Position numbers and translations under genes: made by a program. Shown one piece after another: positions 3,731-17,744 of a DNA stretch of 19,531 nt (position 1 is the stretch's first letter; each line of letters starts with the position of its first letter). The notes beneath the pieces were generated by a model. That model was not told the DNA's origin and made no database searches. It saw nothing but the letters and a program-made list of their open reading frames with translations. The stretch is taken from NCBI GenBank assembly GCA_036478295.1, contig JAZGDW010000233.1:1-19531 (forward strand). Reading direction: 5' to 3'. This DNA is from Candidatus Krumholzibacteriia bacterium. GTDB taxonomy: Bacteria > Krumholzibacteriota > Krumholzibacteriia > WVZY01.

Positions 3731-3748
3731 ACAAAAGAATGCCCCGCG

Positions 3749-5233
3749 CTAGTACTTGACGCGGACCGTATAGGTCAGCTCGGCTGTTCCCTTGCGGTCC
3801 ACCGGCACGTCGAAGCGAATGCGGTTGGAGGATTCCTTTTCGAAGTCGTGCGACTTTTCCACTACTTCCCAATCGCTGGGAATCACTTCGACCACCGAAA
3901 CGGTGATGGGTTCCTCTTTGTGATTGCGCAGTTCGACCTTGTACGAGGACTCGTAGAGGTGCCCGCTCTGCAGCACCTTGAAACGGGTCTGGACGCGCTC
4001 GCCGATGACGTCGAAGGCGTCACCCATCTTGACGCGTATGGTCTCGTCCTCCGGCGTGTGGTCAATCCGGTCTTCACCGATGAACTGCAGGTCCTCATCG
4101 TGATCGCGCTTGTAGACACGGACGATGCCCTTCGGCAGCGGCATACCCAGGTTGTTCTCCTTCGAGTTCTCGAACGCCAGAAACACTCCGACCTTGGTGT
4201 CCTTGTCAGGCCCCGACATGGCGGCGAACCAGTAGGGCACGCTGGCCTGGTATACGTACTTTTTCTCGACGGAGGCGTTTTCGGCGCTGAGCAGACTGAT
4301 CTGCTTGGTCTGGTTGTCCTTGATCGTGCTCTTGCGCTGCAGCGTGTAGAGATGGTATTCGAAAAACGCTTTCTCCACGAACTGCGCAGCCGACCGCTTG
4401 GCCGACACCTCGTAGGGCCGAGAGGCCGGATAGAGGCCTCGCTCGGGGCCCGCCCGGTGCACGTCGCCCGCCACCAATTTGATCGAAGCGTCTGGATAGG
4501 TCGCGCCGCTCTCGTTATTTATCGTCACCCATCCCGACAGATCGATTTGCTTGTCGTCCGTGGACAGCACCAGGACATAGTTGCATTTCCAACTGATACC
4601 GCCGGTAAGATAGCTTGCCTCCACCTTGTGCTCGCGGCGGTCGTTGTCCAGCATCCACACGAGGGTCGGCTTCGAGATCAACCCTTCGGGGAGCTCCGGC
4701 AGCAAGACGCGTGCGGACGGGTTGACGGCAATCTTGCCGTCCATCTCGTAGACGTACCCGCCCTGGTCGCCGATCAGGCGCGCGGGCACGACGACTTCCT
4801 TCTTGTTCTTCCACATGACGAGCTCCACGTCGCGGCCGAGGTATTTCTCCATGAGTTTTGCCGGGCTGATGAGGTCGAACTCGAAGTTCTGCTCGAGCAC
4901 GGCGATATGCCCCGGGTGGGTCAGCGATCGTATGTGGACGCTGGTAGGGTCGATCTTCGCGGCGACTCCCTGGAACTTCAGGTCCAGCACCCCCCGGGAC
5001 AGGCGGAGGTCTCGGATATCTTTGACCAGGCCGAGATTACTGTTGTAAATCGTAATGCTGATTGATTCCTGGTCGTCGAGCGTGCTCGTCTGCTCGGGAC
5101 CCTGCGGCGCGGCCCACGCCGGTCCGCCGGTAAGCATCCCCAGCACCAGGATTGCCGAGGTCACGAACACAGAAAAACGCAGCGGGCACAGGCTCACGCT
5201 GAACATCGGTAACAAGATTCTTCGGTCAAACAT
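3749..5233 (-). CDS. DUF4139/DUF4140-type exported protein
   Basis: Signal-peptide-like N-terminus ending AWA-APQ; family-like motifs ITIYNSNLGLVKD, EQNFEFDL, SYLTGGISWKCNY, FFEYHLYTL, LGMPLPKGIVRVY, FIGEDRIDHTP. Confidence 0.8.
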   Translation of the reverse strand: MFDRRILLPMFSVSLCPLRFSVFVTSAILVLGMLTGGPAWAAPQGPEQTSTLDDQESISITIYNSNLGLVKDIRDLRLSRGVLDLKFQGVAAKIDPTSVHIRSLTHPGHIAVLEQNFEFDLISPAKLMEKYLGRDVELVMWKNKKEVVVPARLIGDQGGYVYEMDGKIAVNPSARVLLPELPEGLISKPTLVWMLDNDRREHKVEASYLTGGISWKCNYVLVLSTDDKQIDLSGWVTINNESGATYPDASIKLVAGDVHRAGPERGLYPASRPYEVSAKRSAAQFVEKAFFEYHLYTLQRKSTIKDNQTKQISLLSAENASVEKKYVYQASVPYWFAAMSGPDKDTKVGVFLAFENSKENNLGMPLPKGIVRVYKRDHDEDLQFIGEDRIDHTPEDETIRVKMGDAFDVIGERVQTRFKVLQSGHLYESSYKVELRNHKEEPITVSVVEVIPSDWEVVEKSHDFEKESSNRIRFDVPVDRKGTAELTYTVRVKY

Positions 5234-5394
5234 GACTCACCACCTTGAGAAATCGAGACGGCCGCTTGAAAGGCCAGCGGCGATAGCTATGCATACAATG
5301 CTTTATACAGACAGGGAAAGCGTTAATTCCGCAGCAGCAGGGATCTTTGAGGCATCACAGGGAGGCATGCGACGGGCCCGGCGCGGCAAAGGAC

Positions 5395-5495
5395 GGCGGT
5401 GCGTTGTTGGGGTGGTGACGGAGCCGTTTCGGGTACAGGTGGCGGCGCGTTGTTGGGGTGGTGACGGAGCCGTTGCGGGTACAGGTGGCGGCGCG
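5395..5495. repeat. Tandem duplication, 46-bp unit, about 2.2 copies
   Basis: GCGTTGTTGGGGTGGTGACGGAGCCGTT(T/G)CGGGTACAGGTGGCGGC starts at 5401 and 5447 with one mismatch. Confidence 0.9.
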
Positions 5496-5647
5496 CGGGT
5501 GGGCTGTTGACGGACCCCCATGCGGGAGCGAGCGAGGATCACGCGCCGCAGGCGGGTAGCCGAGCGAAGCGGAGCGCGGGTCAGGAGACAGTCCACCCGC
5601 GCGCCGCCGACAACCGCAGGCGGGTAGCCGAGCGAAGCGAAGCACGG
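5487..5647. repeat. Interleaved inverted and direct repeats (REP/MITE-like)
   Basis: 21-bp inverted repeat at 5487-5507 and 5588-5608 (20/21, the mismatch is G.T). 34-bp direct repeat CCGCAGGCGGGTAGCCGAGCGAAGCG(G/A)AGC(G/A)CGG at 5546-5579 and 5614-5647 (32/34). Confidence 0.75.
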
Positions 5648-5698
5648 CGACGGAGGCAATTCAACAGTGGGCGTCGGGAAGTTTGATGAAATGGAGCC

Positions 5699-5785
5699 TG
5701 GTGCCGAGGGCGGGACTCGAACCCGCACAGACTTTCGTCTACTGCCCCCTCAAGACAGCGTGTCTACCAGTTTCACCACCTCGGC
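5699..5785 (-). tRNA. tRNA-Leu(GAG), CCA encoded
   Basis: Reverse complement folds as GCCGAGG/CCTCGGC acceptor stem, anticodon arm CTGTC-TTGAGGG-GGCAG, long variable arm AGAC-GAAA-GTCT, T-loop TTCGAGT, ending ACCA. The secG-tRNA-Leu(GAG) linkage is widely conserved. Confidence 0.97.
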
Positions 5786-5795
5786 AGGTCGATGA

Positions 5796-6170
5796 TCATT
5801 GCTGCTGCGTGGTATCCGCTGGAACGCTGTCCAGCACGGAGGTTCCCAGGATAGCGTCGATACTCTCGCCGGTCGGGATGATGTTCCCCTCTTGCTGTAT
5901 CGATTGCTGGATGACGCTCCTCGGCCGGCTGGTGGAGCGGTTCGACGTGAGCAACGCGAGCAGCAGCGAGAGCAGCATGAAGGCTACTGCGAGGTACGTC
6001 GTGGCCCTGGTCAGAAACGTGGCCGTCTCGTGTCCGCCGAAAACCGTCTGGTCCCCACCACCGCCGAACGCCCCCGCCAGCCCGCCGCCCTTGCTCGACT
6101 GCATGAGCACGACGATAATCAGCACGAAACAGACCGTAACGTGAATGACCAATACGAGAGTGTAAAGCAA
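5796..6170 (-). CDS. secG: Preprotein translocase subunit SecG
   Basis: Two TM helices flanking VLMQSSKGGGLAGAFGGGG and FLTRATTYLA. TTG start with AAAGGA SD; located after tpiA. Confidence 0.95.
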   Translation of the reverse strand: MLYTLVLVIHVTVCFVLIIVVLMQSSKGGGLAGAFGGGGDQTVFGGHETATFLTRATTYLAVAFMLLSLLLALLTSNRSTSRPRSVIQQSIQQEGNIIPTGESIDAILGTSVLDSVPADTTQQQ

Positions 6171-6196
6171 GTAAGGTGTCCTTTCTCTTTCGGGTC

Positions 6197-6225
6197 AGCC
6201 TAGCAGACCGCTCGTGGAAAGTCAA
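6197..6225 (-). promoter_or_regulatory. Candidate sigma70 promoter for secG-tRNA-Leu
   Basis: TTGACT-17 nt-TAGGCT with an extended -10 TG on the minus strand. Confidence 0.55.
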
Positions 6226-6289
6226 GGCGTCGATTACCCATAACGGCTTACGACATAATTGGTTAGTACGACATGTGGCCCAGCGATTC

Positions 6290-7048
6290 TTACCCCGCCG
6301 CGCGCGCGATGTCTACGAAAGAGTCGACGCTAAGGCTGGCCCCGCCGATCAAGGCGCCATCGATCTCGGCCCTCGCCAGCAGGTCGGCGGCGTTACCGGG
6401 CTTGACGCTGCCCCCATACAGGACGCGCAATCCGTCGGCGGCCTCCACACCGAAGCGCTCACCCACGACGCCACGGATGAAATGGTGCATCGATTCGGCG
6501 TCATTCGGGGTTGCCGTCTTGCCGGTGCCGATGGCCCACACCGGTTCATAGGCGACAACGATCGTGGACAACTGGGCTGCCGTCACGTCACGGAGCGCGA
6601 TATCCAGCTGCTCGCGTACGACCGACTCGGCGTCCCCCGCCTCGCGCTGCTCCAGCTGCTCTCCCACGCACAACACCGCCATCAGTCCGGCTTCGAGCGC
6701 CGCTTTGAGCTTGTTGCAAACCACCTCGTCGCCCTCGCCGATCACGTGCCGGCGCTCCGAATGGCCTACGATCACCCACGTCCCGCCTGCGTCGCGTATC
6801 ATATCGCCCGAAACCTCGCCGGTAAAGGCCCCCTTCTTTTCCCAAAAGACATCCTGGGCACCGAGAGCCACCCGCGTATCCCGCAGAACGGCGGCCAGCG
6901 CGGGCAAGGCGAAGAACGGCGGGAACACCACCATGTCGCACGAAGGCAGCGCGGGGAGCTTTGATTTCAGCTTCGTCCCAAAGGCTTCGGCCTCTGCGAT
7001 GCGCTTTTGCATCTTCCAGTTGGCTGCAATGAGTTTGTTCCGGCTCAT
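6290..7048 (-). CDS. tpiA: Triosephosphate isomerase
   Basis: Motifs AANWKM, GAFTGEVS, VGHSERR, AYEPVWAIGTG, LYGGSVKP, GALIGGASL. Start placed at MSRNKLIAANWK (ATG 7048), giving 252 aa. Confidence 0.97.
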   Translation of the reverse strand: MSRNKLIAANWKMQKRIAEAEAFGTKLKSKLPALPSCDMVVFPPFFALPALAAVLRDTRVALGAQDVFWEKKGAFTGEVSGDMIRDAGGTWVIVGHSERRHVIGEGDEVVCNKLKAALEAGLMAVLCVGEQLEQREAGDAESVVREQLDIALRDVTAAQLSTIVVAYEPVWAIGTGKTATPNDAESMHHFIRGVVGERFGVEAADGLRVLYGGSVKPGNAADLLARAEIDGALIGGASLSVDSFVDIARAAG

Positions 7049-7091
7049 CGGTTCGGGCCCTGAATGACGTGGTTCAGCGGAACGGGAGATA

Positions 7092-8303
7092 CTAACAGGA
7101 TGCTTCGGCGCGGTCGCAAAGCGCCTCGACGCCGGGCAGGTCTTTCCCCTCCATAAACTCCAGCGAAGCGCCGCCACCCGTCGAGATGTGGGTATACCGC
7201 CCACCCAGCCCCATCAGATTGATGGCAGCCACGCTGTCCCCGCCCCCGACAATCGTCGTGGCGTCCCGGGATCCCGCGTCGGCCACCGCTCTGGCTACTT
7301 CTTTCGTGCCGTCGGCGAAGCTCGGTTTTTCAAACACGCCCATGGGGCCGTTCCAGAAAATCGTGCCCGCTTCGGCCAACTCGCTCTTGAACAGAGCCAC
7401 CGACTTGGGTCCGATATCGACACCGATCCAGTCCTCCGGGATATCGGCGATCGAGACTTCGCGGGCCGGTGCAGCGTCGTCGATCGCGCGCGCGATGATG
7501 CAGTCCACCGGCAGGAGGAGGCGTGCTGCGCCGCTGTGGCGTCGGTCGAGCAGCTCTTTGCACATCGTGAGGTATGCATCGTCGACGATGCTCTCACCCG
7601 TCTCGAGACCCGTCGCTTTAAAAAAAGTGAACATCATCCCGCCACCGACCAGCACAACGTCCACCCGGTCCATCAGCGACTTGATGAGATTAATCTTGCC
7701 CTTTATCTTGGCGCCCCCGAGCACCGCCACGAACGGGCGCTTCGGATTCTCGAGAGCATTAGTCAAAGCGTCTATCTCTTTTTCCAGAAGGAATCCGGCC
7801 GAGCGTATGTCGAAATGGTCTGCCACGCCGACCGTGGAGGCGTGAGCGCGATGCGCCGTACCGAACGCATCGTTCACGTAGATGTCCCCCAGCGAGGCGA
7901 GCTCGCTAGCGAAATCCGGGTCATTCGCCTCCTCGCCGGCGTGAAAACGGAGGTTCTCGAGCAGGAGAACTTCCCCTTCCTGCAACGTGTCTACCTTGTG
8001 CTTGACCTCATCACCTGTGCAGTCCTTGACGAACTTGACCGGGTAATTCACGTGCTCCCCTAGTCGGAACGCCGTCGGCGCCAGGCTCAACCGTTCGTCT
8101 CTTCGGCCGCGCGGACGCCCGAGGTGGCTCATGAGAATCAGACGCCCACCGCGGTCCACGATGCTGTTTATCGTCGGCAGCGCAGCGACAATCCGCGTAT
8201 CGTCCGTAATGTTCTTGTTGCGGTCGATAGGAACATTAAAATCAACGCGGGTAAGGACTCTCTTCCCGGACACGTCGCAGTCTCGAATGCTCAGCTTTTT
8301 CAT
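7092..8303 (-). CDS. pgk: Phosphoglycerate kinase
   Basis: Motifs RVDFNVP, SHLGRP, LLENLRF, NDAFGTAHRAHAS, WNGPMGVFE, HISTGGGASLE. Confidence 0.98.
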   Translation of the reverse strand: MKKLSIRDCDVSGKRVLTRVDFNVPIDRNKNITDDTRIVAALPTINSIVDRGGRLILMSHLGRPRGRRDERLSLAPTAFRLGEHVNYPVKFVKDCTGDEVKHKVDTLQEGEVLLLENLRFHAGEEANDPDFASELASLGDIYVNDAFGTAHRAHASTVGVADHFDIRSAGFLLEKEIDALTNALENPKRPFVAVLGGAKIKGKINLIKSLMDRVDVVLVGGGMMFTFFKATGLETGESIVDDAYLTMCKELLDRRHSGAARLLLPVDCIIARAIDDAAPAREVSIADIPEDWIGVDIGPKSVALFKSELAEAGTIFWNGPMGVFEKPSFADGTKEVARAVADAGSRDATTIVGGGDSVAAINLMGLGGRYTHISTGGGASLEFMEGKDLPGVEALCDRAEASC

Positions 8304-8318
8304 ACCGTTCCGTCTTGG

Positions 8319-9314
8319 CTAAACCAGAAGTTTCAACATGTCGACCATACGTGCCGAATATCCGAACTCGTTGTCATACCACGACAGCACCTTGAAAAAA
8401 TCTCCGCCGACGGCCATCGTCGCCAACGCGTCGAAAATCGAAGAATGGGGGTTGCCGATGATGTCCACCGAGACAATCGGATCCTCCGTGTATTCTAGAT
8501 AGCCCTTCAGCGATCCATCCGCCGCGTTCTTCATGGCGGTATTTATCGCATCGACCGATGCGCTTTCCCGGAGCCTCACCGTGAGATCGACCAGTGAGCC
8601 GTTGGCCACCGGTACACGCACTGCCATCCCGTCCAGCCGCCCCTCCAACTCGGGCAGAACCTTGGCCACCGCTTTGGCCGCCCCCGTCGTTGTCGGGATC
8701 ATCGACACGGCGGCCGCGCGGGCCCTGCGCAAATCCTTGTGCGGCAGATCGAGAATCTTCTGGTCATTCGTGTACGCGTGGATCGTCGTCATGAGCCCTT
8801 GCTCGATACCGAAGTTGTCATTGAGTATCTTGGCCACCGGCGCCAGGCAATTGGTCGTGCACGACGCCGTGGACACGAGATGATGCGTCTCCCTGTCGTA
8901 TTTGTGGTGATTCACGCCCATAACAACCATGATGTCTGAATCCTTCGACGGCGCCGAAATCAACACTTTTCGAGCACCCGCCGCCAGATGTTTGGTGGCT
9001 TGCTCTCTGGCGGTAAAGCGACCGGTGGACTCTATGACGATGTCCGCACCCAACTCTTTCCATGGGAGTCTCGCAGGATCGGTCTCGGACAGTACTTCCA
9101 GCTTCGTGTCCCCGACCTTGATGGCGCTACCGGCAACAGAGACCTCGGCCGGGAACCGGCCGTGAACGGAATCGTATTTTAGCAGGTGCGCGAGAATCTC
9201 CGGTTCGGTCAGGTCGTTTACCGCGACGAACTCCAGGTCTGCGTCCCGGAAGCCGTGCCGGAAAACCAGCCTCCCAATCCGGCCAAAGCCGTTGATTGCC
9301 ACTTTGATTGCCAT
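8319..9314 (-). CDS. gap: Type I glyceraldehyde-3-phosphate dehydrogenase
   Basis: Motifs INGFGRIGR, ASCTTNCLAP, PTTTGAAKAV, WYDNEFGY. ATG 9314 is preceded by AGGAGG. Confidence 0.98.
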   Translation of the reverse strand: MAIKVAINGFGRIGRLVFRHGFRDADLEFVAVNDLTEPEILAHLLKYDSVHGRFPAEVSVAGSAIKVGDTKLEVLSETDPARLPWKELGADIVIESTGRFTAREQATKHLAAGARKVLISAPSKDSDIMVVMGVNHHKYDRETHHLVSTASCTTNCLAPVAKILNDNFGIEQGLMTTIHAYTNDQKILDLPHKDLRRARAAAVSMIPTTTGAAKAVAKVLPELEGRLDGMAVRVPVANGSLVDLTVRLRESASVDAINTAMKNAADGSLKGYLEYTEDPIVSVDIIGNPHSSIFDALATMAVGGDFFKVLSWYDNEFGYSARMVDMLKLLV

Positions 9315-9502
9315 CACTTCCTCCTGCACAGAGAACCGAACGCCCGGCTACTCAAAAAAGACGGCTCCCAACACTCGAGCTTTCAGGTCGATCGTTGTCC
9401 TTCCCGGAATTCACAAAATTCGGCCGCGGTCCGAGCCAAATCAGTCAAAAAAACCGTGGCCCGGCCGAGCCAACGCGAGGGGGTGCGCCGACCACCAACT
9501 CT

Positions 9503-9532
9503 ATGATAGCCGGGGTCCGTCAGGTGTGTCAA
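9503..9532 (-). promoter_or_regulatory. Candidate sigma70 promoter for gap-pgk-tpiA
   Basis: TTGACA-18 nt-TATCAT on the minus strand just after the comF stop codon. Confidence 0.55.
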
Positions 9533-9541
9533 GTCAAAGCG

Positions 9542-10012
9542 CTACAAAGCCCTAGCAAAGCAGAGCACTTCAAGAGAAATCGCCCCCGCCGCGAAAATAG
9601 CGCAGGCGCAGGCGGCCGCCGTCGCACCAGTGGTCACAAGATCGTCGACGAGGAGCACCCGCTTTCCGGCCAGACCTGACCCGGCGCAGGCAAAGGCCCC
9701 ACGGACGTTCGCCGCCCTCGCGGCGTGAGGCGTTCGAGATTGCCGCGCCGTTCGCTTTACCCTTTTTAGCACATTTCTAATCAAAGGGATATCGAGTTCG
9801 TGCTGGAGGTGCCTTGCGATATCCTCGGGTAGATTTATGCCGTGCCGTCCAACCCGCGTCACGGGCACGGGAACGAGCACCGTCGTCGAATCGGACCCGT
9901 GACCGAGGCGGCGGTACGCGTCCTCAAGTGTTTCCGCAACTGGCTGCGCCAGACCCCAGTACCGATCGAACTTGATCAAGTGGACTATTTTCAACGGGTT
10001 ATCACTGGTCAT
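9542..10012 (-). pseudogene. comF: ComF family protein, C-terminal (phosphoribosyltransferase-like) fragment
   Basis: Motifs LVPVP, RQSRTPHAARAANVRGAF and PRPP-binding VLLVDDLVTTGAT. Begins exactly at the target-site duplication of the IS. Confidence 0.9.
10005..10012. repeat. Left 8-bp target-site duplication CTGGTCAT
   Basis: Identical to 12741-12748; both directly flank the terminal inverted repeats. Confidence 0.93.
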
Positions 10013-10074
10013 CGGGACTGTGTACTTGTCGCAATCCCAATGAAATCAATGCAATAGGCGGGATTCTGGCGTAA

Positions 10075-10236
10075 TTACTTCTTACGCTTGGGCTTCCGCT
10101 TCTTTTGGGGCTTCTCTGGCCAGCCTTCCTTCGGACGCTCTTTCTTGAGAGCTTTGTCGACAGCGTCCTGCCAATCACCGTCAATATTGACGTGTTCCGG
10201 CTGTCTGCCACGCTTTTTGGGTTTTTCTTTGTTCAT
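10075..10236 (-). CDS. Small basic hypothetical protein (53 aa), IS passenger
   Basis: Below the ORF-track cutoff. Manual translation: MNKEKPKKRGRQPEHVNIDGDWQDAVDKALKKERPKEGWPEKPQKKRKPKRKK*. Alternative ATG at 10242. Confidence 0.6.
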   Translation of the reverse strand: MNKEKPKKRGRQPEHVNIDGDWQDAVDKALKKERPKEGWPEKPQKKRKPKRKK

Positions 10237-10247
10237 CAGCATACTTG

Positions 10248-10276
10248 TTGACAGAAGTGCTGAGATGATTTAGATT
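10248..10276 (+). promoter_or_regulatory. Candidate sigma70 promoter for the 163-aa ORF and tRNA
   Basis: TTGACA (10248-10253)-17 nt-TAGATT (10271-10276); SD AAGGAG at 10294-10299. Confidence 0.65.
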
Positions 10277-10309
10277 TCCTTACGTCGAAGCCCAAGGAGC
10301 GATAGAGAC

Positions 10310-10801
10310 ATGATTAAGCTACGAGTCCCCTGGAACCAATCGCATATCGAAGGCGAATTCGACAATGTTGTCGAAGCCGCTGAATTTATTCGTGCTCTTG
10401 CTAACGGTACCGCTGCACCGTCCAATTCTCAAATGGCATTCGACTTAGGAGAAATTGAAGGGTCCACAGTTGGATTATCGTGGTCAGACGACGATATGTC
10501 CAGGCAAATGTCTTTCTTGCAGGGAGTCGCGAAAGCCAAGAAGGGCATTCTCACTAGAGATTTGGCAAAAGCGTTAGGCATGTCAGACGCTAGGGGTATC
10601 GGTGGGATCATGGCTGGGCTTGGCCGCAGGTTGAATAAATTGGATCTCAAACCAACGTCTGTGGTTAGGAAAAGAAAAACCAAAGCGGGCTTGAAGTATT
10701 CCCCCGGCCCCGAGATTCTTAAGGCGATTAAGCTTTTGGAAATGGCAGAAATTCTGGAGGAAGTGGGCGAGGAACACGGAAAAAAAGGCAGCCCGCCGTA
10801 A
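10310..10801 (+). CDS. Hypothetical protein, putative winged helix-turn-helix DNA-binding domain, IS passenger
   Basis: Has promoter and SD. GILTRDLAKALGMSDARGIGGIMAGLGRRL followed by a basic beta-hairpin-like VVRKRKTKAGLKYS looks like a wHTH (inferred by eye). Confidence 0.7.
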   Translation: MIKLRVPWNQSHIEGEFDNVVEAAEFIRALANGTAAPSNSQMAFDLGEIEGSTVGLSWSDDDMSRQMSFLQGVAKAKKGILTRDLAKALGMSDARGIGGIMAGLGRRLNKLDLKPTSVVRKRKTKAGLKYSPGPEILKAIKLLEMAEILEEVGEEHGKKGSPP

Positions 10802-10823
10802 GCAAGCTGCCTTTCAGGAGATT

Positions 10824-10909
10824 GCGGGCGTGGCGAAAATGGCAAACGCACTCGCTTTGGAAGCGAGCGCGGATTTTTCCGCATCCGGGTTCGAGCCCCG
10901 GCGTCCGCA
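10824..10909 (+). tRNA. Non-canonical class II tRNA: tRNA-Leu-type body with UGG (Pro) anticodon, no encoded CCA
   Basis: Acceptor GCGGGCG/CGTCCGC; D-arm GCG-AAAATGGCAAA-CGC; anticodon arm CTCGC-TTTGGAA-GCGAG (TGG at 10858-10860); variable arm GCGGA-TTTT-TCCGC; T-arm CCGGG-TTCGAGC-CCCGG; discriminator A at 10909. Confidence 0.9.
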
Positions 10910-10974
10910 AAATATGTCCAACCCGAAAGGATGGTGGTTACCTTGAGAGTTTGACCAAGCCCTTCGAGGGTGAC

Positions 10975-10997
10975 GGGGCCGGAGGAAACCCGGCCCC
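10975..10997. terminator. Strong GC hairpin, possible terminator of the ORF-tRNA transcript
   Basis: GGGGCCGG-AGGAAAC-CCGGCCCC, an 8-bp perfect stem. It is followed by ATATACT rather than a clean U-tract. Confidence 0.4.
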
Positions 10998-11003
10998 ATA
11001 TAC

Positions 11004-11034
11004 TGCTTATAAGCGCTTATAAGCACTGTGTCAA
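11004..11034 (-). promoter_or_regulatory. Perfect 22-bp palindrome (operator-like) overlapping a candidate minus-strand promoter
   Basis: TGCTTATAAGCGCTTATAAGCA at 11004-11025. Minus strand reads TTGACA (11034-11029)-17 nt-TATAAG (11011-11006). Confidence 0.6.
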
Positions 11035-11126
11035 GAACTAATCTATTATCCTGCTTTGAGTTAAATCGCCCATGCTCTTGTAACCGTATCGGGTGAAACT
11101 ATTTGCCAACTATTTTAATTTTTTAC

Positions 11127-11155
11127 TTGACGCAAACATCCTATTGTGTTATAGT
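11127..11155 (+). promoter_or_regulatory. Sigma70 promoter of the transposase (predicted leaderless mRNA)
   Basis: TTGACG (11127-11132)-17 nt-TATAGT (11150-11155) with extended -10 TG and an AT-rich upstream tract. The ATG begins 7 nt after the -10 box. Confidence 0.7.
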
Positions 11156-11161
11156 TAAGAC

Positions 11162-12130
11162 ATGAAAAAGAAGAAAAATAGTAAGGTAGCGGGTGACAAA
11201 TGTAAGGTAATTGCAGAAATACCAATAGCTTGCCAAGATGAGCAGGCAGCCGTGGAGTTCCTGGAAAAGCACCGGTGGAGCGATGATCCATGCTGTCCCC
11301 GGTGTGGGAGCGTGTCGGTCTACCAGATGGTCAGTCGCACGACTGGCAGGCGAAACGCCCGGTATCTCTGGATGTGCCGAGACTGCAAACGCCAGTATAC
11401 GGTTAGAATCGGCACCGTCTTCGAGGATAGCCGTATCCCGCTCAAACACTGGTGCTATGCCTTTTGGGCCGCGTGTGCGTCTAAGAAGGGCGTGAGTGCC
11501 CTTCAGATTAAGCGTATGACGGGGCTCTCGTATAAGAGCGCCCTTTTCATGATGCACCGTATCCGCTACGCCATGGCAGACGATCCCAAGACACCACGCA
11601 AGCTAACCGGGGTCGTGGAATGCGATGAGACTTACGTTGGTGGTCGCCCGCGCTACCCCAAGAAAGGTATGGGCAAGTCTTTGGATTGGATGGACAGGAA
11701 AACGCCGGTGCTGGCCATGGTGGAGCGTGGTGGTAATGCCAGGGCCATGGCAATTCCGAACGTCAAAGGTGTAACACTGTGGACGCACCTAAGGCGCCAC
11801 ATAGATCAGGAAGCAACGCTAATGACCGATGAGCTGCACGCCTACAAGCGCATCGGGAAGCCATTCAAGAAGCACTACCGGATAAAACACGGTCTGGGCC
11901 AGTACGTCAAAGGGGACGTTCATACTAACACGGTTGAGGGATTTTTCAGCCTGCTAAAGCGCGGAATTATCGGCACGTTTCACAGTGTATCCAAGAAACA
12001 CTTACACCGATACGTTGCTGAGTTTGAATTCAGGTACAACACGCGCCGACAGGGAGATGGGGAAAGGCTGGCGAAAGCGATAAAAAGCGCCCAGGGGAAG
12101 CGTTTGAAATACAAAGATCAGGTGAGCTGA
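11162..12130 (+). CDS. IS1595 family DDE transposase
   Basis: N-terminal zinc ribbon CPRCG...CRDC; KGVSALQIKR HTH region; catalytic motifs ECDETY, MTDE, HTNTVEGFF; C-terminal RYVAEFEFRYN. Frame is intact, 322 aa. Confidence 0.96.
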   Translation: MKKKKNSKVAGDKCKVIAEIPIACQDEQAAVEFLEKHRWSDDPCCPRCGSVSVYQMVSRTTGRRNARYLWMCRDCKRQYTVRIGTVFEDSRIPLKHWCYAFWAACASKKGVSALQIKRMTGLSYKSALFMMHRIRYAMADDPKTPRKLTGVVECDETYVGGRPRYPKKGMGKSLDWMDRKTPVLAMVERGGNARAMAIPNVKGVTLWTHLRRHIDQEATLMTDELHAYKRIGKPFKKHYRIKHGLGQYVKGDVHTNTVEGFFSLLKRGIIGTFHSVSKKHLHRYVAEFEFRYNTRRQGDGERLAKAIKSAQGKRLKYKDQVS

Positions 12131-12150
12131 AAACTTGGGCCAGTACAAAA

Positions 12151-12699
12151 TTAGAAAACTCGTTTAGCTTCTGTTGGCGAAGAAGTGGAAAGCCGAAAAT
12201 TAAGGTCAGAATCAATAACAAAGCGATATTCCTTTTTGTCTACGTTGTTGCCATAAATCTCAATTCTTAACTCGTAATACTTCTCAGGCCGCTCAACCCA
12301 ATGAGGGCAAGTTGCACATACTGGTTCGAGTCCTCTGAAACCGCTACTATCTTCAACAGTTCGAAGAACGCTTACCAGAACTGTGTGCCGTGGTGAAATA
12401 TTGAATTCATAAGCATCTTCGTCCCTGCAAAATAGTGGTGATCGAAGACGCTCAGAAATAACTTCAACATCTGACCCGTTCGGGTTCACGAATTCAACCA
12501 AGTCAGCTCTTACGTTTTCTGCCAACCAATTTCTGCTTATGTTTTGTAGTGCTATTTCCCACACAGTCCCCCTTAACTCTGGCATGTGGTGTTTCCGCTC
12601 AATTCGAAAAGGGCGGCCCCACGATACCTTGATCCTCGGCTTCAACCTGAAAACCTTACTGTGAAGCCAAACAGCGCAATCAAAGAGATTCCACAACAT
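12151..12699 (-). CDS. Hypothetical protein, IS passenger convergent with the transposase
   Basis: 182-codon ORF in AT-rich sequence with alternating beta-strand-like patterns (VWEIALQN, VLVSV, YELRIEIYG, YRFVID). No family recognised; start uncertain. Confidence 0.65.
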   Translation of the reverse strand: MLWNLFDCAVWLHSKVFRLKPRIKVSWGRPFRIERKHHMPELRGTVWEIALQNISRNWLAENVRADLVEFVNPNGSDVEVISERLRSPLFCRDEDAYEFNISPRHTVLVSVLRTVEDSSGFRGLEPVCATCPHWVERPEKYYELRIEIYGNNVDKKEYRFVIDSDLNFRLSTSSPTEAKRVF

Positions 12700-12740
12700 C
12701 GCGTTATCGTATCACAATTTGCATCAAGTACATACTTCCC

Positions 12741-12748
12741 CTGGTCAT
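12741..12748. repeat. Right 8-bp target-site duplication CTGGTCAT
   Basis: Identical to 10005-10012. Confidence 0.93.
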
Positions 12749-13255
12749 GAAGGGCGCGACAATTGGGATCGACACCTGGCCCTGGGGCCCACCGATCTCC
12801 GGGCCCGGTTCCGTGTCCACCGCGGGTTCGTCCCCGGTGTTGGGCGGCTCGAACCGTTCGCCGGTAGTCGTCGTTACCGCGCGGCCAGCATCGGCCCATC
12901 CCAACAACCCCGCCGTCCGGCCCGGCTCGAACCCCCCCGCACAACGCTCGCAAACGGGGTGATTACGAAGCGAAATGATCCGTAAGAAGGAGCGGGTCAC
13001 CGGACGGAGGAAGTAACCACTGAGCCCAGCCGCTTCACACGCCGTGGGCCCGGGCACACGACCCGATCCGCAGAGCGCGCACAGGTCTTCGACGAGAAAG
13101 TCCAGCACAGCCTGCGCGCCCGCGCTCGCCAAATGCGAGAACGCGCTTCGTGCAAAAAGAAAAGCCGAACCAGCACGCTGCGCGCTTCCGGCCTCGCCTT
13201 CCTTGCCCGCCCGATCCCCTCGATCCACACCCTTCACCTCCGACGGGATTGTCAT
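12741..13255 (-). pseudogene. comF: ComF family protein, N-terminal (zinc-ribbon-like) fragment
   Basis: ATG 13255 overlaps the lgt TGA (ATGA). Contains LDFLVEDLCALCG and VCERC. Reads VAPFMT into the TSD, then runs into IS sequence and stops at 12704. Confidence 0.85.
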
Positions 13256-14070
13256 GATGTTGGCCCTGCGGATGCGACCTTTCGCGTCTTCAGCTCCGTC
13301 TTTCTCAAGAGCAAGAAGAGACCGATCGAGAACAGGCCCACGCTGAGCCACTGGTTCAGCGTAAGGTCCAGGAACATTCGCATGCTTTGTTCATAGTACC
13401 GAAAAAAGTCCAACGTGAAACGAAAGACACCGTAGAGAACGAGTAGCGCTCCGAACGCCGCCCCGCGTTTGACGAGCTTTTTTTCGGCCAGCATCAGGAT
13501 GGTAAATGTCACGAATCCAAAGAACGAGGCGTAGAGCTGCGTTGGATGTAGGTGCACGATTTCTCCGGCCTGGGCGGCCAGCCCGCGAGCGTACGCGCCC
13601 GCCGCCGATTCCGGTGGAAACACCACGCCCCACGCTTGTTCTGTCGGCTTGCCGAAGCAGCAGCCGCTCAGATAACACCCCACACGCGTCACCATGATAC
13701 CCAACGCGAGTGCGGGACTCAAGATGTCCCCCATCAGGAGAAAATCGATGTTTTTCTTCGCCGCATAAACGTAGGCGGCGAATATCGCGAGCAGGAAACC
13801 ACCGTACAACGTCGCGCCTCCCTGCCACAGGGCGAAGATATCCAGGAAGCTGTTGTACTCGTCCAGATGAAACACAACGTACAGGAGCCGGGAGCCGATC
13901 ACGCCGGTGAGAATCAAATAGACGCTCAGGTCGAGGACGTGCTGTGGATCCACGCCGTAACGTTTCGCGCGCCAGGACGACAGATAGATGCCGATCAGAA
14001 AACTCAACGCCAGCATGAATCCGAACGCGTAAACGTTGAACCAACCGAATTTCACCAAAACGGGGTGCAT
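13252..14070 (-). CDS. lgt: Prolipoprotein diacylglyceryl transferase
   Basis: MHPVL start, GSRLLYV, WQGGATLYGG, RVGCYLSGCCFG, HPTQLY, YGVFRFTLDFFR. Confidence 0.94.
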   Translation of the reverse strand: MHPVLVKFGWFNVYAFGFMLALSFLIGIYLSSWRAKRYGVDPQHVLDLSVYLILTGVIGSRLLYVVFHLDEYNSFLDIFALWQGGATLYGGFLLAIFAAYVYAAKKNIDFLLMGDILSPALALGIMVTRVGCYLSGCCFGKPTEQAWGVVFPPESAAGAYARGLAAQAGEIVHLHPTQLYASFFGFVTFTILMLAEKKLVKRGAAFGALLVLYGVFRFTLDFFRYYEQSMRMFLDLTLNQWLSVGLFSIGLFLLLRKTELKTRKVASAGPTS

Positions 14071-14177
14071 ACCTTGTCTCGATCCTTATCAACCTTCGAG
14101 ATCGAGCCCTGTCCAACCACCGAGAGGCCAGGGGCTCCGGTCACGAAGCGCTACACCGCTTTGAGGGCGGCGCAGCG

Positions 14178-15425
14178 TCAGTACTCGTACCATTTCACAC
14201 TACAATTTAGCAAGAATCCAACGAGGAAGCAACTCACGACCAGCGAGCTGCCACCGTAGCTAAGAAAAGGAACGGGGATTCCTGTGACCGGGGCCATGCC
14301 GGTTACCATCGCGATGTTGATAAACGTTTGAAAGAAAAAATACGCGGCGATGCCGATGCACACCGTACTCGCGAACTGGCCCTTGGCCTTTACGGCAATG
14401 GCGAGCGCGCGGGAGACGAGTACCGCGAACAGCACCAGCACGAGCAGCGCTCCGGCGAAGCCCATTTCTTCGCCGAGCACCGAAAAAACGAAATCCGTGT
14501 GCTTGGCAGGCAGAAACTCCAACGCTTTCTGCGTGCCCTCCAGAAAGCCCTTCCCGGAGAGTCCCCCGGAGCCAATGGCAATCTTGGACTGAAACACCTG
14601 CCAGCCGGCCCCCAGCCTTTCCGATTCGGGATTGAGAAAAGTGCTAATGCGAGACTGCTGGTAGGGTTTCAGGTGGTTCAAAATGATCGGGCCCACGAAA
14701 CCGACGCCCAAGTTGGCGACAACCAGCGTAATGCTCTCGCGCGGGTTCGAACGTCCCATATAGGCGACCACAAAAATCAGAACGATGTAGACGCCGAACG
14801 GCCACGAGTGCTTGAGGATCTGCCCGCAGTAGATGATCAAAACCCCTGCGACCACCGGGGAGATTATGAAGAATATCTGGCGGCCGCGGAGCCCTCTCCA
14901 GTACAAGACGGGAAGCAGCATGACGAGAAGGATAATCGCCGTGCCTAGATCCGGCTGCCGCAGAACGAGAAGGAACGGCACCAGCAATAGTCCGATCGAT
15001 GCGAACATCTTCTTTGCCCGGTCCATGCCGCCCATGTGTCCCGATAGCACACGTCCCCATACGAACAGCAGTGCAATCTTGGCTAACTCCGACGGCTGCA
15101 AACGCATGGGGCCGATAGAAATCCAGCGCTGTGCCGTGTCTCCGCTGCCGGCGAACAGGACGACAACCAGCAGCACCACACAAAAGAGATAGTACAAGTA
15201 GGCGAGGGCCTCGAAGTATCGAACGGGGACGGCAAACCCGATCAGCATGGCGACGATACCGAAACACACCCAAATCAGCTGGCGGTTGAAATACTGGTAG
15301 TCCACGTCCTGCGAGAATCCGCTCTGGGCAGGATGGAAAACTGAATAAATGAGACTGAGCCCGATAATGCACAGCAAGACCGATGTCGTCAGCACCAGCG
15401 AGTCGATGTCCCGGCTCACCCTCAT
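14178..15425 (-). CDS. rodA: Rod shape-determining protein RodA (SEDS glycosyltransferase)
   Basis: Motifs QRWI, QPSELAK, QPDLGTA, SKIAIGSGG, HTDFVF, PFLSYGGSS; follows mrdA. Confidence 0.96.
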   Translation of the reverse strand: MRVSRDIDSLVLTTSVLLCIIGLSLIYSVFHPAQSGFSQDVDYQYFNRQLIWVCFGIVAMLIGFAVPVRYFEALAYLYYLFCVVLLVVVLFAGSGDTAQRWISIGPMRLQPSELAKIALLFVWGRVLSGHMGGMDRAKKMFASIGLLLVPFLLVLRQPDLGTAIILLVMLLPVLYWRGLRGRQIFFIISPVVAGVLIIYCGQILKHSWPFGVYIVLIFVVAYMGRSNPRESITLVVANLGVGFVGPIILNHLKPYQQSRISTFLNPESERLGAGWQVFQSKIAIGSGGLSGKGFLEGTQKALEFLPAKHTDFVFSVLGEEMGFAGALLVLVLFAVLVSRALAIAVKAKGQFASTVCIGIAAYFFFQTFINIAMVTGMAPVTGIPVPFLSYGGSSLVVSCFLVGFLLNCSVKWYEY

Positions 15426-17260
15426 TGGTCTTCCCTCGCCACCGGTGTCGCAACCGCGGTGGCGGTCGGCCCCGCCGCCTCCACGCTCTCCGGCTCTTTG
15501 AAATATTCCTCGTAGAACTTACGGACAATGGGCCCGGCGACGCTGCCTCCGTGCCCGGCGTTCTCGACTATGATGGCAATGGCGATCTCCGGATCCTCCT
15601 CCGGGGCGTAGCCAATGAACCACGCGTGGTCGTCTCCGTGTGGATTCTGTGCCGTTCCCGTCTTACCGGCCGCTTTCAGTGCCGCGACCCTGCTCGACTT
15701 GGCGGTACCGTCCTGGCTTTGCACCACGTCCCGCATGGCGCGGCGGATTCGATTCTGAATGGGTCCGGTGAGCTTGCGAATTTTGCGGCGCGGGTACACC
15801 CCGTGAAACTCGCCGCCTATCTCACGCACGACGTGCGGTCGTACAAGGTAACCGCCGTTGGCGATCGCTGAAACGGCGCGGCACATCTGTAGCACACTCA
15901 CCAGAAACTCCCCCTGCCCGATGATGTTGTTCAGAACCAGTCCCTGGGTCCACTTGCCCTTGCCATAGCGGCGGTCGTAGTACTTGCGGTCCGGCACCAA
16001 CCCCTGTATTTCGTTGGGCAGGTCGATACCCGTTCGCGTACCCAATCCGAACTCCTCACACGCCGAAGCGAGCATATCGACGTCCATCCTCTCAGCTACC
16101 TTATAGAAGTACGAATCGCATGACTGCACGAGTCCGGAGTGAAGGTCCATGTAGCCGTGGCCCCATGCTTTCCAGCACTTGAAGATCCGGTTACCGAACC
16201 GGTGCGCTCCGGTGCAGTAGACCAGTGCCTCGCCGGGCGGTACCAGCCGATTGCTCAACACCGCGTACATGCTCACAATTTTCAGAGTCGATGCGGGGGG
16301 ATACGTCGCCGTGAGGAACCGGTTGAACAACGGCTTTTCCTCGGCCTGATTCAGCGCGTTCCATTCGGCCTGCTTGATGCCGATTGCAAAACTGTTGGGG
16401 TCGAATCCCGGCAGGCTCACCGCCGCGAGGATCGATCCGTCCTCAACGTTCATCACGACCGCCGCCCCGGAGCCCCGCGCGCGCACAAGGTCCTCGAGCA
16501 ATCGTTGAAGTTTTCCATCGATGGTGAGCGTGACGTCTTTGCCGGGGACGGGCGGCTCGAGCAGTTCGTTGAACTCGCCCAGTTTGGTGCCGGCGGCGTT
16601 CACCGCCACCACGCGCTGTCCGTCCTTTCCCCTGAGGAAACTCTCACAGACGCCTTCGATTCCCGTCTTCCCGACAAGGTCTCCCGAAACGTAGCCTCGG
16701 TGGGAACTCCGCAATAGAAATTCGTCGTTTACCTCGCCGACGTAGCCAAGCAGGTGGGCCGCCACCGCGCCTTCGCGGTAACGACGTCGGGCGTTCGTTT
16801 CCACCCGAAGTTTCGGAAACCGATCGTAGTTTTCACGCACAAAGGAAATCACCAGCTTGTCCGCGTTCCGAACCACTGGAAAGGGAATGCCCGTGTTTCT
16901 CTTCCGCCAGACTTTGAACCGCTCGTAGACATTCGTCGTATCGATCGGGAGAAAATGATTCAGGTGGTCGACGGTCCGGCGGATATCCTCTTCGCCCCTC
17001 CACGGCATCACGATGTCGAATCGCGGCACGTTGTCAACGAGCACGACGCCGTTCCTGTCTTTGATCAACCCCCTTGGCGCGATGATGCGCTCGCGCTGCA
17101 GCTGGTTTTCCTGCGCGTACTGGGCATAGTACTCGTAGCGGATGTGCTGCAGGTAAAGCAGTCGCCCGGCGAGGATCACGAACATGAGGACCACAAAGGA
17201 GAGTAACCACTGGTACTTGATTCTGCCCCGTCTCTCATCTCTAGGGTCGCGCTTTCCCAA
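15422..17260 (-). CDS. mrdA: Penicillin-binding protein 2
   Basis: PRGLIKDRNG, AHLLGYVGE, SxxK (PASTLK), SCD, KTGTAQ, HAWFIGYAP; lies in the mre operon. Confidence 0.96.
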   Translation of the reverse strand: MGKRDPRDERRGRIKYQWLLSFVVLMFVILAGRLLYLQHIRYEYYAQYAQENQLQRERIIAPRGLIKDRNGVVLVDNVPRFDIVMPWRGEEDIRRTVDHLNHFLPIDTTNVYERFKVWRKRNTGIPFPVVRNADKLVISFVRENYDRFPKLRVETNARRRYREGAVAAHLLGYVGEVNDEFLLRSSHRGYVSGDLVGKTGIEGVCESFLRGKDGQRVVAVNAAGTKLGEFNELLEPPVPGKDVTLTIDGKLQRLLEDLVRARGSGAAVVMNVEDGSILAAVSLPGFDPNSFAIGIKQAEWNALNQAEEKPLFNRFLTATYPPASTLKIVSMYAVLSNRLVPPGEALVYCTGAHRFGNRIFKCWKAWGHGYMDLHSGLVQSCDSYFYKVAERMDVDMLASACEEFGLGTRTGIDLPNEIQGLVPDRKYYDRRYGKGKWTQGLVLNNIIGQGEFLVSVLQMCRAVSAIANGGYLVRPHVVREIGGEFHGVYPRRKIRKLTGPIQNRIRRAMRDVVQSQDGTAKSSRVAALKAAGKTGTAQNPHGDDHAWFIGYAPEEDPEIAIAIIVENAGHGGSVAGPIVRKFYEEYFKEPESVEAAGPTATAVATPVAREDQ

Positions 17261-17744
17261 ACGTCCTCACCCCCTTCGTGCCCAGAACGACGGCGATTCT
17301 GTGTACGATTACTCCAACGACCGCGGTATAGATCGAGGAAGGTATCGAAACCGTGAGCAGCAACATGAAGAATTTTCCCGGGTCGAGCCCCGTAAAAATC
17401 AGCAAATAGACGAAATCATGGCCCAGCGCCGTGATGCTGAAGAGCGCCAGCAGGAACAGATCGTTGTCCGGGTCCGCTTTGGCACCGGTGACGCTGACCG
17501 CATATCCGGCCACTGATTTTGTTAGCGCGTTCAAACCCAGAAGCTGTGGGTTGAACAAATCCTGGATCAGGCCGACGACAAAACCGCTGATCGACCCCCG
17601 CACCGGGGTCTGGTGGATGGCAAAATAAGCGACGAGAAGCAGAGGAAAATCCGGCGATATCTCACCCAAGGCGATCCGCGGCGCCACAAGCATCTGCAGC
17701 ATCAGAAACACAAAAGACGCTATCAACACGTTCAACCGCTTCAC
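17241..17744 (-). CDS. mreD: Rod shape-determining protein MreD
   Basis: Hydrophobic 167-aa protein with PDFPLLLV and GFVVGLIQDL, between mreC and mrdA. Confidence 0.92.
   Translation of the reverse strand: MKRLNVLIASFVFLMLQMLVAPRIALGEISPDFPLLLVAYFAIHQTPVRGSISGFVVGLIQDLFNPQLLGLNALTKSVAGYAVSVTGAKADPDNDLFLLALFSITALGHDFVYLLIFTGLDPGKFFMLLLTVSIPSSIYTAVVGVIVHRIAVVLGTKGVRTFGKARP

Follow-up and report, generated by a model that had tools for sequence, protein, structure and literature searches.

An IS1595-family transposon carrying a leucine-type tRNA with a proline anticodon, and the apparent pairing of this tRNA with a codon of the transposase gene

Natural tRNAs in which the anticodon and the identity of the body disagree are rare and their biological roles are mostly obscure. 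Dedicated tRNAs for a rare codon, such as the bldA tRNA-Leu(UAA) reading TTA codons in Streptomyces or the tRNAs of phages, are known to aid or control chosen genes. Regarding mobile elements, those of the IS1595 family (ISfinder) encode a DDE transposase that begins with a zinc ribbon, are bounded by terminal inverted repeats and duplicate 8 bp of their target, and some of them carry cargo. Among mismatched tRNAs, the so-called allo-tRNAs are found near toxin-antitoxin genes, with one pseudogene overlapping a transposon-related open reading frame (ORF), as reported in passages of Mukai et al. (NAR 2017, PMC5389517) and of a review (PMC7609411), and some of them are, according to the former, active missense or nonsense suppressors in E. 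coli. The present analysis concerns a window of 19,531 nucleotides, i.e. the whole stretch of DNA that was analysed, from a Candidatus Krumholzibacteriia bacterium (assembly GCA_036478295.1, contig JAZGDW010000233.1, positions 1 to 19,531 of the forward strand), where a tRNA with a leucine-type body and the anticodon UGG is borne by a transposon. By all the sequence evidence, it is a real tRNA under selection and a conserved core part of a transposon lineage. The reading tentatively preferred here is that of a working, transposon-encoded decoder of CCA codons, likely charged with leucine and paired with codon 21 of the transposase gene, within the conserved core of an IS1595 lineage.

Two tRNA genes were called in the window by ARAGORN, namely a tRNA-Leu(gag) at 5699-5785 on the reverse strand, already pointed out in the earlier note and recovered by Rfam as well, and a tRNA-Pro(tgg) at 10823-10910 on the forward strand, the latter corresponding to the feature under study:

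10824-10909, forward strand: tRNA with a leucine-type, long-arm body, UGG anticodon, A37, A73 and no encoded CCA (ARAGORN, Rfam).

The Rfam model RF00005 matches 10824-10909 at 53.7 bits for a gathering score of 29 (E 3e-09), and the covariance model R1 of the family presented below gives 87 bits. According to the ARAGORN drawing and the sequence, the acceptor stem counts 7 bp including one G.U, with G1:C72 and C2:G71, the D-stem 3 bp with an 11-nt loop holding A14, A15 and G18G19, and the anticodon stem 5 bp closing a 7-nt loop, UUUGGAA, in which UGG occupies 10858-10860 and position 37 is A. The variable arm has a 5-bp stem with one unpaired base on its 5' side and two on its 3' side, the last being U48; the T-stem counts 5 bp, and A73 is followed by AAAUAU where CCA would stand. 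Every structural feature listed in the earlier note was thus seen, including the pairing of all stems and the presentation of UGG in a 7-nt loop. The fold is the standard 7/5 one and differs from the 8- or 9-bp acceptor and 4- or 3-bp T-stem of allo-tRNAs, as had been proposed; this is backed by covariation, the pair 49:65 varying between GC, GU, AU and CG.

Regarding identity, the leucine feature set is present, namely the long variable arm, A73, A14, A15:U48 and C2:G71, and the closest host tRNAs are indeed those for leucine, but the anticodon UGG is not a leucine one (NAG or NAA). As for proline, G35 and G36 of the anticodon together with A73 are there, whereas C1:G72, G15:C48, G37 and the short variable loop are all lacking, their places being taken by G1:C72, A15:U48, A37 and a 5-bp arm, so that the hybrid character attributed to this tRNA stands.

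The host assembly consists of 316 contigs (91% complete, 5% estimated contamination) and holds 40 tRNAs, all five Leu isoacceptors among them (ARAGORN). The nearest of these to the window tRNA is tRNA-Leu(UAG), with 59 of 80 aligned bases identical (74%), a divergence too large for the window tRNA to have arisen recently by mutation of that gene. Besides the transposon UGG gene, the proline tRNAs are restricted to two different GGG genes (C42:1783-1857 and C92:3623-3700), which begin with C1 and are 75-78 nt long. No canonical tRNA-Pro(UGG) or tRNA-Pro(CGG) was found by ARAGORN in this 91% complete assembly, and, since many other host tRNAs are missing too, the shortage is most likely an assembly or binning gap. 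Among 11 host tRNA sequences examined for Leu, Ser and Pro, 10 encode the CCA end, the eleventh being cut at the discriminator, and a gene of the CCA-adding enzyme family is present.

The tRNA sits within a transposon of 2728 bp (10013-12740), found in one copy in the host assembly and delimited as follows:

10005-10012, no strand: left copy of the 8-bp target-site duplication, CTGGTCAT, from the junction alignment; single copy in genome G001.
10013-10033, forward strand: left terminal inverted repeat, 17 of 21 bases as in the shared end motif (core TGTACTTG), pairing with the right end.
11162-12130, forward strand: IS1595-family transposase of 322 amino acids (aa) (Pfam, NCBIfam).
11222-11224, forward strand: CCA at transposase codon 21, matching the anticodon of the tRNA.
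12720-12740, reverse strand: right terminal inverted repeat, 19 of 20 bases as in the shared end motif.
12741-12748, no strand: right copy of the 8-bp target-site duplication, CTGGTCAT, from the junction alignment.

The transposase matches the Pfam domains DDE_Tnp_IS1595 (1.6e-41) and, at its N-terminus, Zn_ribbon_IS1595 (1.6e-10), as well as NCBIfam NF033547 (198 bits, cut-off 75). The terminal inverted repeats of the transposon are imperfect. Genome G001 (L003), from the same genus, has an empty, uninterrupted insertion site with one copy of CTGGTCAT, and the flanking genes, namely a phosphoribosyltransferase-like gene and a 215-aa ORF upstream of lgt, are adjacent there. Besides, the G+C content is 0.44-0.54 over 10001-12500 versus about 0.55-0.65 in the flanks. 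All that defines an IS1595 transposon is therefore present, from the DDE transposase with its N-terminal zinc ribbon to the end repeats, the 8-bp duplication and the evidence of insertion, and the claim that the tRNA is transposon-borne is borne out.

The same holds beyond the window. Units of 1.8-5.4 kb, delimited by end repeats that have the shared core, were recognised at L016 (a compact type of 1.8 kb), L017, L021, L027, L035, L037, L051, L083 and four Verrucomicrobia loci, and the tRNA always lies inside the repeat-bounded unit, the window element included. Duplications of 8 bp flank the window element, L016, L017, L021, L027 and L051, with 6 bp legible in L035, and one genome holds two element copies that show no difference over at least 4054 bp, tRNA included. 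In a plasmid collection, only transposase relatives with at most 43% identity were found.

A scan for the transposase, with one genome per species, gave at least 395 relatives, of which 80 loci were kept. ARAGORN called 28 tRNAs in 26 of these 80 loci, mostly a long-arm tRNA-Pro(tgg) right beside the transposase, and the family was enlarged with a covariance model built from 15 aligned tRNAs, which also finds members with 100-nt bodies. The phylum of G032, in which 401 genomes were scanned and 58 had a transposase match at E <= 1e-40 (one flagged as unpublished), yielded further members, as did the phylum of the host itself. Altogether, 35 Leu-type tRNAs stand beside related IS1595 transposases in 34 elements. 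Their anticodons are UGG in 29 cases and AGG, CGG, UGC, AGA, UUA and UGA in one case each (NGG in 31 of 35); UAG is not among them, and the suspicion that UGG reflects a recent point mutation or a sequencing error, raised in the earlier note, is contradicted by this tabulation as well as by stem covariation and the 74% identity to the host tRNA-Leu(UAG). In the 15-member alignment, 99% of the cells are paired and 15 of the 20 pairs display compensatory changes, a level reached by none of 500 shuffles; A14, A15 and U48 never vary, C2:G71 occurs in 13 and A73 in 14 of the 15, and neither G72 nor G15:C48 is seen. In several members the body reaches 100 nt owing to a very long variable region, several encode CCA, and those with non-Pro anticodons (UGC, AGA, UUA, UGA) keep bodies scoring 82-89 bits. 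The usual place of the tRNA is 20-300 bases past the transposase stop, on the opposite strand.

Going by record titles, the hosts, with many soil and sediment bacteria among them, include Gemmatimonadota, Eisenbacteria, Krumholzibacteriia, Acidobacteriota, Gammaproteobacteria, Phycisphaerae/Planctomycetota, Alphaproteobacteria and a deltaproteobacterial metagenome-assembled genome. In the phylum of the window host, transposase relatives at E <= 1e-60 occur in 4 of 208 genomes, the host included, one of them being L018 from another Candidatus Krumholzibacteriia, i.e. the same class; none was found at this threshold in 12 genomes of the host's family. A mostly alphaproteobacterial transposase clade at 38-45% identity is largely devoid of the tRNA. 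A second type of tRNA, class B, was encountered in seven Verrucomicrobia elements (L040, L043, L045, L048, L049, L052 and L069; that of L043 at 5144-5220, forward strand), with a short variable loop, the UGG anticodon, U73 and C for the universal U55; it is encoded about 20-550 bases beyond the stop of the transposase, on the other strand, and has an 8-nt anticodon loop in 3 of 7 cases.

As a side observation, mismatched long-arm tRNAs are held by other IS1595-type elements, either with Leu-type bodies and UGA, UGC, AGA or UUA anticodons or with Ser-type bodies and CAA, UUA or UAA anticodons, some in tandem with a UGG tRNA. Such tRNAs lie at the following places:

L282:5034-5117 and 5133-5217, reverse strand: mismatched long-arm tRNAs in an IS1595-type element.
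L275:3678-3763 and 3771-3857, forward strand: mismatched long-arm tRNAs in an IS1595-type element.
L265:5070-5266 (reverse strand), L051:1290-1374 (reverse strand), L034:5396-5481 (forward strand) and L083:4727-4810 (reverse strand): mismatched long-arm tRNAs in IS1595-type elements.

The anticodon of the family is mirrored in the codons of its transposases. In the 21 transposases of tRNA-bearing elements, CCA accounts for 69 of the 218 proline codons, where A-ending codons make up 7-21% in the other four-codon boxes of the same genes (third-position G+C 0.71), and for 42 of 266 in 29 transposases from elements without the tRNA. The excess is concentrated in a few columns, the main one being codon 21, within the motif hydrophobic-P-x-A-C-x-D-E: it is CCA in 24 of the 25 UGG-bearing elements having the motif, and, by sample, in 17 of the 18 genes of the first set with the motif, in 6 of the 8 new genes with a family tRNA and in L282. 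As a control for codon bias, 70 conserved four- or six-fold degenerate columns were compared over 24 transposases sharing 43-74% amino acid identity; codon 21 was the most biased of all (one codon in 23 of 24) and the sole column with an A-ending top codon, the others ending in C (41), G (26) or T (2). The codon side of a bldA-like regulation, i.e. a cognate codon at a conserved place, otherwise rare in these G+C-rich genes, is seen here; such a regulation would further require expression to depend on the tRNA.

Among seven relatives without a class-A tRNA match, L019, L033, L265 and L024 have CCG, CCG, CCG and CGG at codon 21, the other three keeping CCA. In L037, whose tRNA bears AGG, the codon is CCT (column 20 of the alignment), and the three other CCT codons of this gene fall in columns 169, 241 and 382, where the prolines of other members are all CCA (5, 1 and 8 cases). 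In the Verrucomicrobia elements with class B tRNAs, the proline of the motif R-Y-A-L-x-(H/Q)-P-x-F is CCA in 7 of 7, and L041 and L046, which have long-arm UGG tRNAs, use CCA at the proline of a neighbouring E-P-L; six relatives without a UGG tRNA have CCC, CCT, CCC, CCG, CCG and CCC at the site of this group. For elements with UGC, AGA and UUA tRNAs, the codon matches are anecdotal only, namely TCT at column 382 in L034 and TAA as the transposase stop in L083. Taken together, these comparisons make a pairing between the element tRNA and the transposase CCA codon well supported.

A third partner accompanies the tRNA and the transposase:

10075-10236, reverse strand: gene of a 53-aa Lys/Arg-rich protein, with tblastn relatives beside transposases in other loci.

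This gene was hidden by the 60-aa cut-off applied to ORFs and was recovered afterwards with tblastn, by which 33 non-redundant sequences could be aligned, that of the window included (e.g. L031:1433-1570 on the reverse strand, L036:4855-4995 and L020:4698-4835 on the forward strand). These proteins of about 50 aa follow the pattern G-P-x-P ... G-x-W ... K-K-R-P-x-E-G-W-P, and their genes are either next to the element end, reading outward, or directly after the tRNA. Against Pfam and NCBIfam, nothing exceeded the cut-offs for the 53-aa protein (best Pfam E 0.02). CCA is used at 35 of the 108 conserved-proline sites of the small protein. When ORFs of at least 60 aa from 21 elements were clustered, only the transposases joined, the remaining cargo being variable; in related elements it comprises PIN with helix-turn-helix (HTH), M78 with HTH, Fic, NYN, Bro-N, DUF3800, dCTP-deaminase-like and Kinase-PolyVal proteins and is otherwise mostly unassigned. 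From this pattern of conservation, the transposase, the tRNA and the 53-aa protein evidently are the three-part core of the transposon lineage, around which other cargo varies.

As to how such a core would operate, we infer that the tRNA would be transcribed, perhaps jointly with the 163-aa ORF located just upstream, trimmed, provided with CCA by the host enzyme and charged, most likely with leucine. It would then read CCA codons in the mRNAs of the element, in competition with the host tRNA-Pro(UGG). The element tRNA would thereby determine how much transposase is made, or whether residue 21 and a few others are Pro or Leu, host CCA and CCG codons being hit as a side effect. Codon 21 tolerates Pro or Arg in relatives without the tRNA, and one of these, L024, has a target duplication and perfect ends, which suggests that the tRNA would act on kinetics or as a modulator rather than meet an absolute need for one residue.

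Regarding the amino acid, leucyl-tRNA synthetase (LeuRS) and seryl-tRNA synthetase (SerRS) are the two synthetases ignoring the anticodon. Because LeuRS does so and the body bears the Leu identity set, leucine appears the most likely, and the full-scoring bodies kept by the members with non-Pro anticodons fit such an anticodon-blind charging. The occurrence of Ser-type bodies with Leu or stop anticodons in the same kind of element and the bacterial type of the host prolyl-tRNA synthetase also speak for leucine, as does the AlphaFold2 (AF2) model of the transposase (predicted local distance difference test, pLDDT, 85.2), in which P21 is on the hydrophobic face of a helix spanning residues 15-25. 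In E. coli, leucine identity lies in A73 and A14, with C2:G71 blocking SerRS, and the determinants for proline are G72, G35, G36, A73 and G15:C48, according to passages of Giegé and Eriani (PMC9976931). We thus lean towards leucine, which the identity rules favour, the codon-usage evidence being without sign of it. A stronger version can also be formulated, i.e. a private genetic code in which the tRNA(UGG), charged with leucine, would read the CCA of codon 21 as Leu, an active or inhibitory form of the transposase being made only where the tRNA is present, at the price of a low-level Pro-to-Leu ambiguity throughout the host, in at least eight phyla; this is less likely than not.

Several observations weigh against a leucine-charged partner of codon 21. 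First, concerning the link itself, the Fisher tests (p = 0.004 and p = 0.0002) overstate the case as the sequences are related and not independent; L015, L030 and L032 keep CCA at codon 21 while being without a class-A tRNA match (L015 and L030 hold weak tRNA-like remnants and L032 is cut upstream); L275 (UGG) and L271 (CGG) both have CCT there; the conserved prolines of the small protein are CCA equally with the tRNA (10 of 18) and without it (6 of 12); and CCA would be read without the element tRNA in some hosts, a canonical tRNA-Pro(UGG) being found in 3 of the 5 element-host genomes checked. Second, concerning leucine, codon 21 encodes Pro or Arg but never Leu in relatives devoid of the tRNA, no conserved Leu column of the transposase alignment holds CCA, and the columns with CCA are hydrophilic or contain Pro elsewhere, with a mean BLOSUM score of +0.27 for Pro and -1.70 for Leu. 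The AF2 model is no clearer when CCA is read as Leu (pLDDT 86.3 versus 85.2), the helix around residue 21 being the same. L282 and L283 use CCA at a strictly conserved zinc-ribbon proline, and the NGG of 31 of the 35 anticodons is also what recognition by prolyl-tRNA synthetase (ProRS) would demand.

Charging with proline is a serious rival to charging with leucine, even if it is regarded as possible rather than probable. The tRNA would then be a proline acceptor in a long-arm body, recognised by ProRS through G35, G36 and A73, which would supply the rare CCA decoding and thereby boost or gate the translation of the element, much as the tRNAs of phages or the bldA tRNA do for their genes. It would account for the preponderance of NGG anticodons, for the enrichment of CCA in element transposases and for its use at conserved prolines (the seven class B sites, the zinc ribbon of L282 and about a third of the small-protein sites), relatives without the tRNA keeping Pro at the same sites through other codons; the CCA columns are not Leu-like, and the class B tRNA bears the same UGG anticodon without the Leu features. 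It is opposed by the lack of G72 and G15:C48, i.e. determinants of the bacterial-type ProRS in passages of PMC9976931, the host ProRS being precisely of this type, with an editing insertion (NCBIfam PRK09194, 744 bits; the ProRS-C_1 domain was not found in it), and by the retention of the full Leu identity set across the family. A plain tRNA-Pro would also suffice, yet type-II bodies recur, and do so with anticodons for Ser, Ala and stop as well; a tRNA-Pro(UGG) is already available in 3 of the 5 host genomes checked; and CCA is used in 0 of 49 instances in three conserved proline columns of the first set of 21 transposases.

The use put forward in the earlier note is improbable in our view, namely that of a leucine-charged general mistranslator directed at host or phage proteins, whether toxic, protective against stress or phages, or relieving stalling at proline codons; the codon match would then be incidental. 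The Leu identity set would allow it, part of the cargo of related elements resembles toxin-antitoxin or defence genes (PIN with HTH, Fic, NYN, dCTP-deaminase-like, Kinase-PolyVal), allo-tRNAs are likewise close to toxin-antitoxin genes and a transposon-related ORF in passages of PMC5389517, and with CCA at about 4.8 per 1000 host codons and CCG making up 49% of the host Pro codons the effect would be proteome-wide. Such a proteome-wide Pro-to-Leu error would however be costly to the host of a chromosomal transposon, the maintenance of CCA at codon 21 and the L037 codons tracking AGG would be left unexplained, and neither a fixed partner toxin or defence gene, the cargo being variable, nor a PADLOC match for the window cargo is there to sustain it. 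The earlier interpretation is therefore partly supported, its hybrid identity and mobility holding and its error alternative being refuted.

Slightly less probable again is a tRNA-shaped RNA that would not decode at all and serve instead as a processing or termination signal, give rise to antisense transcription of the convergent transposase gene, or associate as an RNA with the transposase or the basic protein. The position of most members, 20-300 bases after the transposase stop and on the opposite strand, would suit such functions, as would the oddities of class B (C for U55, U73, 8-nt anticodon loops in 3 of 7) and the several 100-nt bodies with very long variable regions; non-translational roles have been proposed for inactive allo-tRNAs in passages of Mukai et al. 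(PMC5389517). But a processing or antisense role would neither conserve the anticodon nor make transposase codons follow it, the family retains A73, the T-loop and the four stems just like functional tRNAs, and several members encode CCA. Finally, a recent A35-to-G mutant of tRNA-Leu(UAG), a decaying pseudogene or a sequencing error, inviting as UGG is one substitution from UAG, has next to no chance of being right given UGG in 29 of 35 relatives from 34 elements and many phyla with compensatory stem changes, which rules it out as a general explanation, a distinct host tRNA-Leu(UAG) identical at only 59 of 80 bases, and an element in a fresh insertion with a perfect 8-bp duplication.

The remaining features of the window element are as follows:

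10248-10276, forward strand: promoter-like site 5' of the 163-aa ORF and the tRNA, TTGACA-17-TAGATT, 10 of 12 matches, a match to the consensus only.
10310-10801, forward strand: 163-aa cargo ORF, function unassigned, stopping 22 bases 5' of the tRNA; no Pfam, PADLOC or PHROG match.
10974-10998, forward strand: G+C-rich hairpin 3' of the tRNA, a possible terminator with a weak T-tail, read from the sequence.
11117-11134, forward strand: internal copy of the end motif, 15 of 18 bases matching, overlapping the transposase promoter.
11127-11155, forward strand: strong promoter-like site for the transposase gene, 10 of 12 matches (TTGACG-17-TATAGT, the second hexamer being preceded by TG).
12151-12699, reverse strand: 182-aa cargo ORF, function unassigned, G+C 0.44; no Pfam, PADLOC or PHROG match.

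Starting at the left end, the order within the element is thus 53-aa gene (reverse strand), 163-aa ORF, tRNA, internal end motif, transposase and 182-aa ORF (reverse strand). The internal end motif stands where simpler relatives have their left end, and L017 has a similar internal copy. The arm of the hairpin at 10974-10987 is the second arm of an inverted repeat, I2, whose partner arm is at 10699-10712, and a terminator scan made no call at the hairpin. The 163-aa ORF has one weak relative, adjacent to the tRNA of L013 (29% over 89 aa, E 2e-05), and a general search of genome contigs gave none. PADLOC and PHROGs gave no match for either cargo ORF (163 and 182 aa), nor for two further frames within 10002-10273. 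In the 182-aa ORF, 5 of the 10 Pro codons are CCA. The public runs listed as matching the window were DNA runs with small shares (0.15 and 0.06), no RNA run being among them, and their contigs aligned only to 9541-9774 and 12153-12759, together with a 42-base piece of a different tRNA. The second of these intervals covers the 182-aa ORF, which is present at 95-99% identity in public marine-sediment contigs with a different neighbour at the transposase end, and this ORF hence also exists outside the arrangement of the window.

Beyond the elements themselves, long-arm tRNAs were sought in metagenome contigs through a D-arm motif only, a scan blind to the anticodon, which gave 80 loci, 63 with a called tRNA, 36 with Leu anticodons and 27 with others. 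The latter are UGG (6, three beside an IS1595 transposase), GGG (1), CAC (5), GUU (4), CUC (3), CGC (2), UUA (2), AUC (2), GUC (1) and UCA (1). With the same motif, viral contigs gave 57 tRNAs, 39 with Leu anticodons, none with UGG and none beside this transposase. Of note, 8 of these 57 are long-arm tRNAs of 83-86 nt with GUU (Asn), in L303, L310, L337, L339, L347, L348, L354 and L362. Besides, a second tight family of Leu-like long-arm tRNAs was seen in the metagenomes, with a near-constant body and CAC, CUC, CGC or GUC in loops often having C33 (L112, L114, L116, L129, L147, L149, L155, L159, L160, L188 and L190). It adjoins mutually clustering ORFs in at least five loci (L112, L116, L149, L159 and L188), and those scanned in L112, L116, L149 and L159 match Pkinase at 1e-40 to 1e-50.

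The odd tRNA of the window is therefore not isolated but belongs to a conserved family travelling with transposons across many phyla, together with a sign in the sequence of its target, i.e. the fixed cognate codon of the transposase. Should it carry leucine, it would represent a mobile device for recoding a sense codon and a new kind of control of transposition; should it carry proline, it would break the rule limiting the long-arm tRNAs of bacteria to Leu, Ser, Tyr and Sec. In either case, such a lock between tRNA and codon could serve synthetic biology. In the literature covered, with subscription journals and supplements lying outside it, neither an IS1595-borne tRNA(UGG), nor any tRNA as conserved cargo of this family, nor the 53-aa protein, nor transposase codons tracking an element-borne tRNA were found described, and a tRNA-transposase codon pairing within a three-part transposon core appears to be undescribed.

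Compared with known systems, the bldA tRNA and phage tRNAs work in a similar way, yet they have a normal identity, and the tRNA and its target genes do not form one mobile unit. The nev-tRNAs of nematodes reportedly bear Gly and Ile rather than Pro anticodons. Like the window tRNA, they are class II tRNAs with a long arm and anticodons other than Leu or Ser ones (Hamashima et al., NAR 2012, PMC3333845); unlike it, they are eukaryotic nuclear genes and are not known to be mobile. The yeast tRNASer-UGG and the Candida tRNASer-CAG, as presented in parts of PMC9976931, PMC11415595 and PMC6827378, share the type-II body, the synthetase blind to the anticodon and a Pro or Leu anticodon, and they mistranslate; they differ in being eukaryotic or laboratory constructs, of Ser and not Leu identity, none of them mobile (passages of PMC9976931 and PMC11415595). 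Allo-tRNAs resemble the transposon family by their long arm, by their occurrence in soil and sediment bacteria and by the mismatch of anticodon and identity (Mukai et al., NAR 2017, PMC5389517; review PMC7609411, in part), but they are 8/4 or 9/3 tRNAs of mostly Ser identity where the transposon family is 7/5 and Leu-type; UGG has 0 occurrences in the text of PMC5389517, and passages of this paper report no link to a transposase codon. As for the tRNAProX of Streptomyces and Kitasatospora, not described as transposon cargo in passages of PMC11415595, they are likewise bacterial tRNAs of hybrid identity involving proline, from soil bacteria, and provide the mirror image of the window tRNA, with a Pro body, Ala, Asn or Thr anticodons, and proline inserted at codons of other amino acids.

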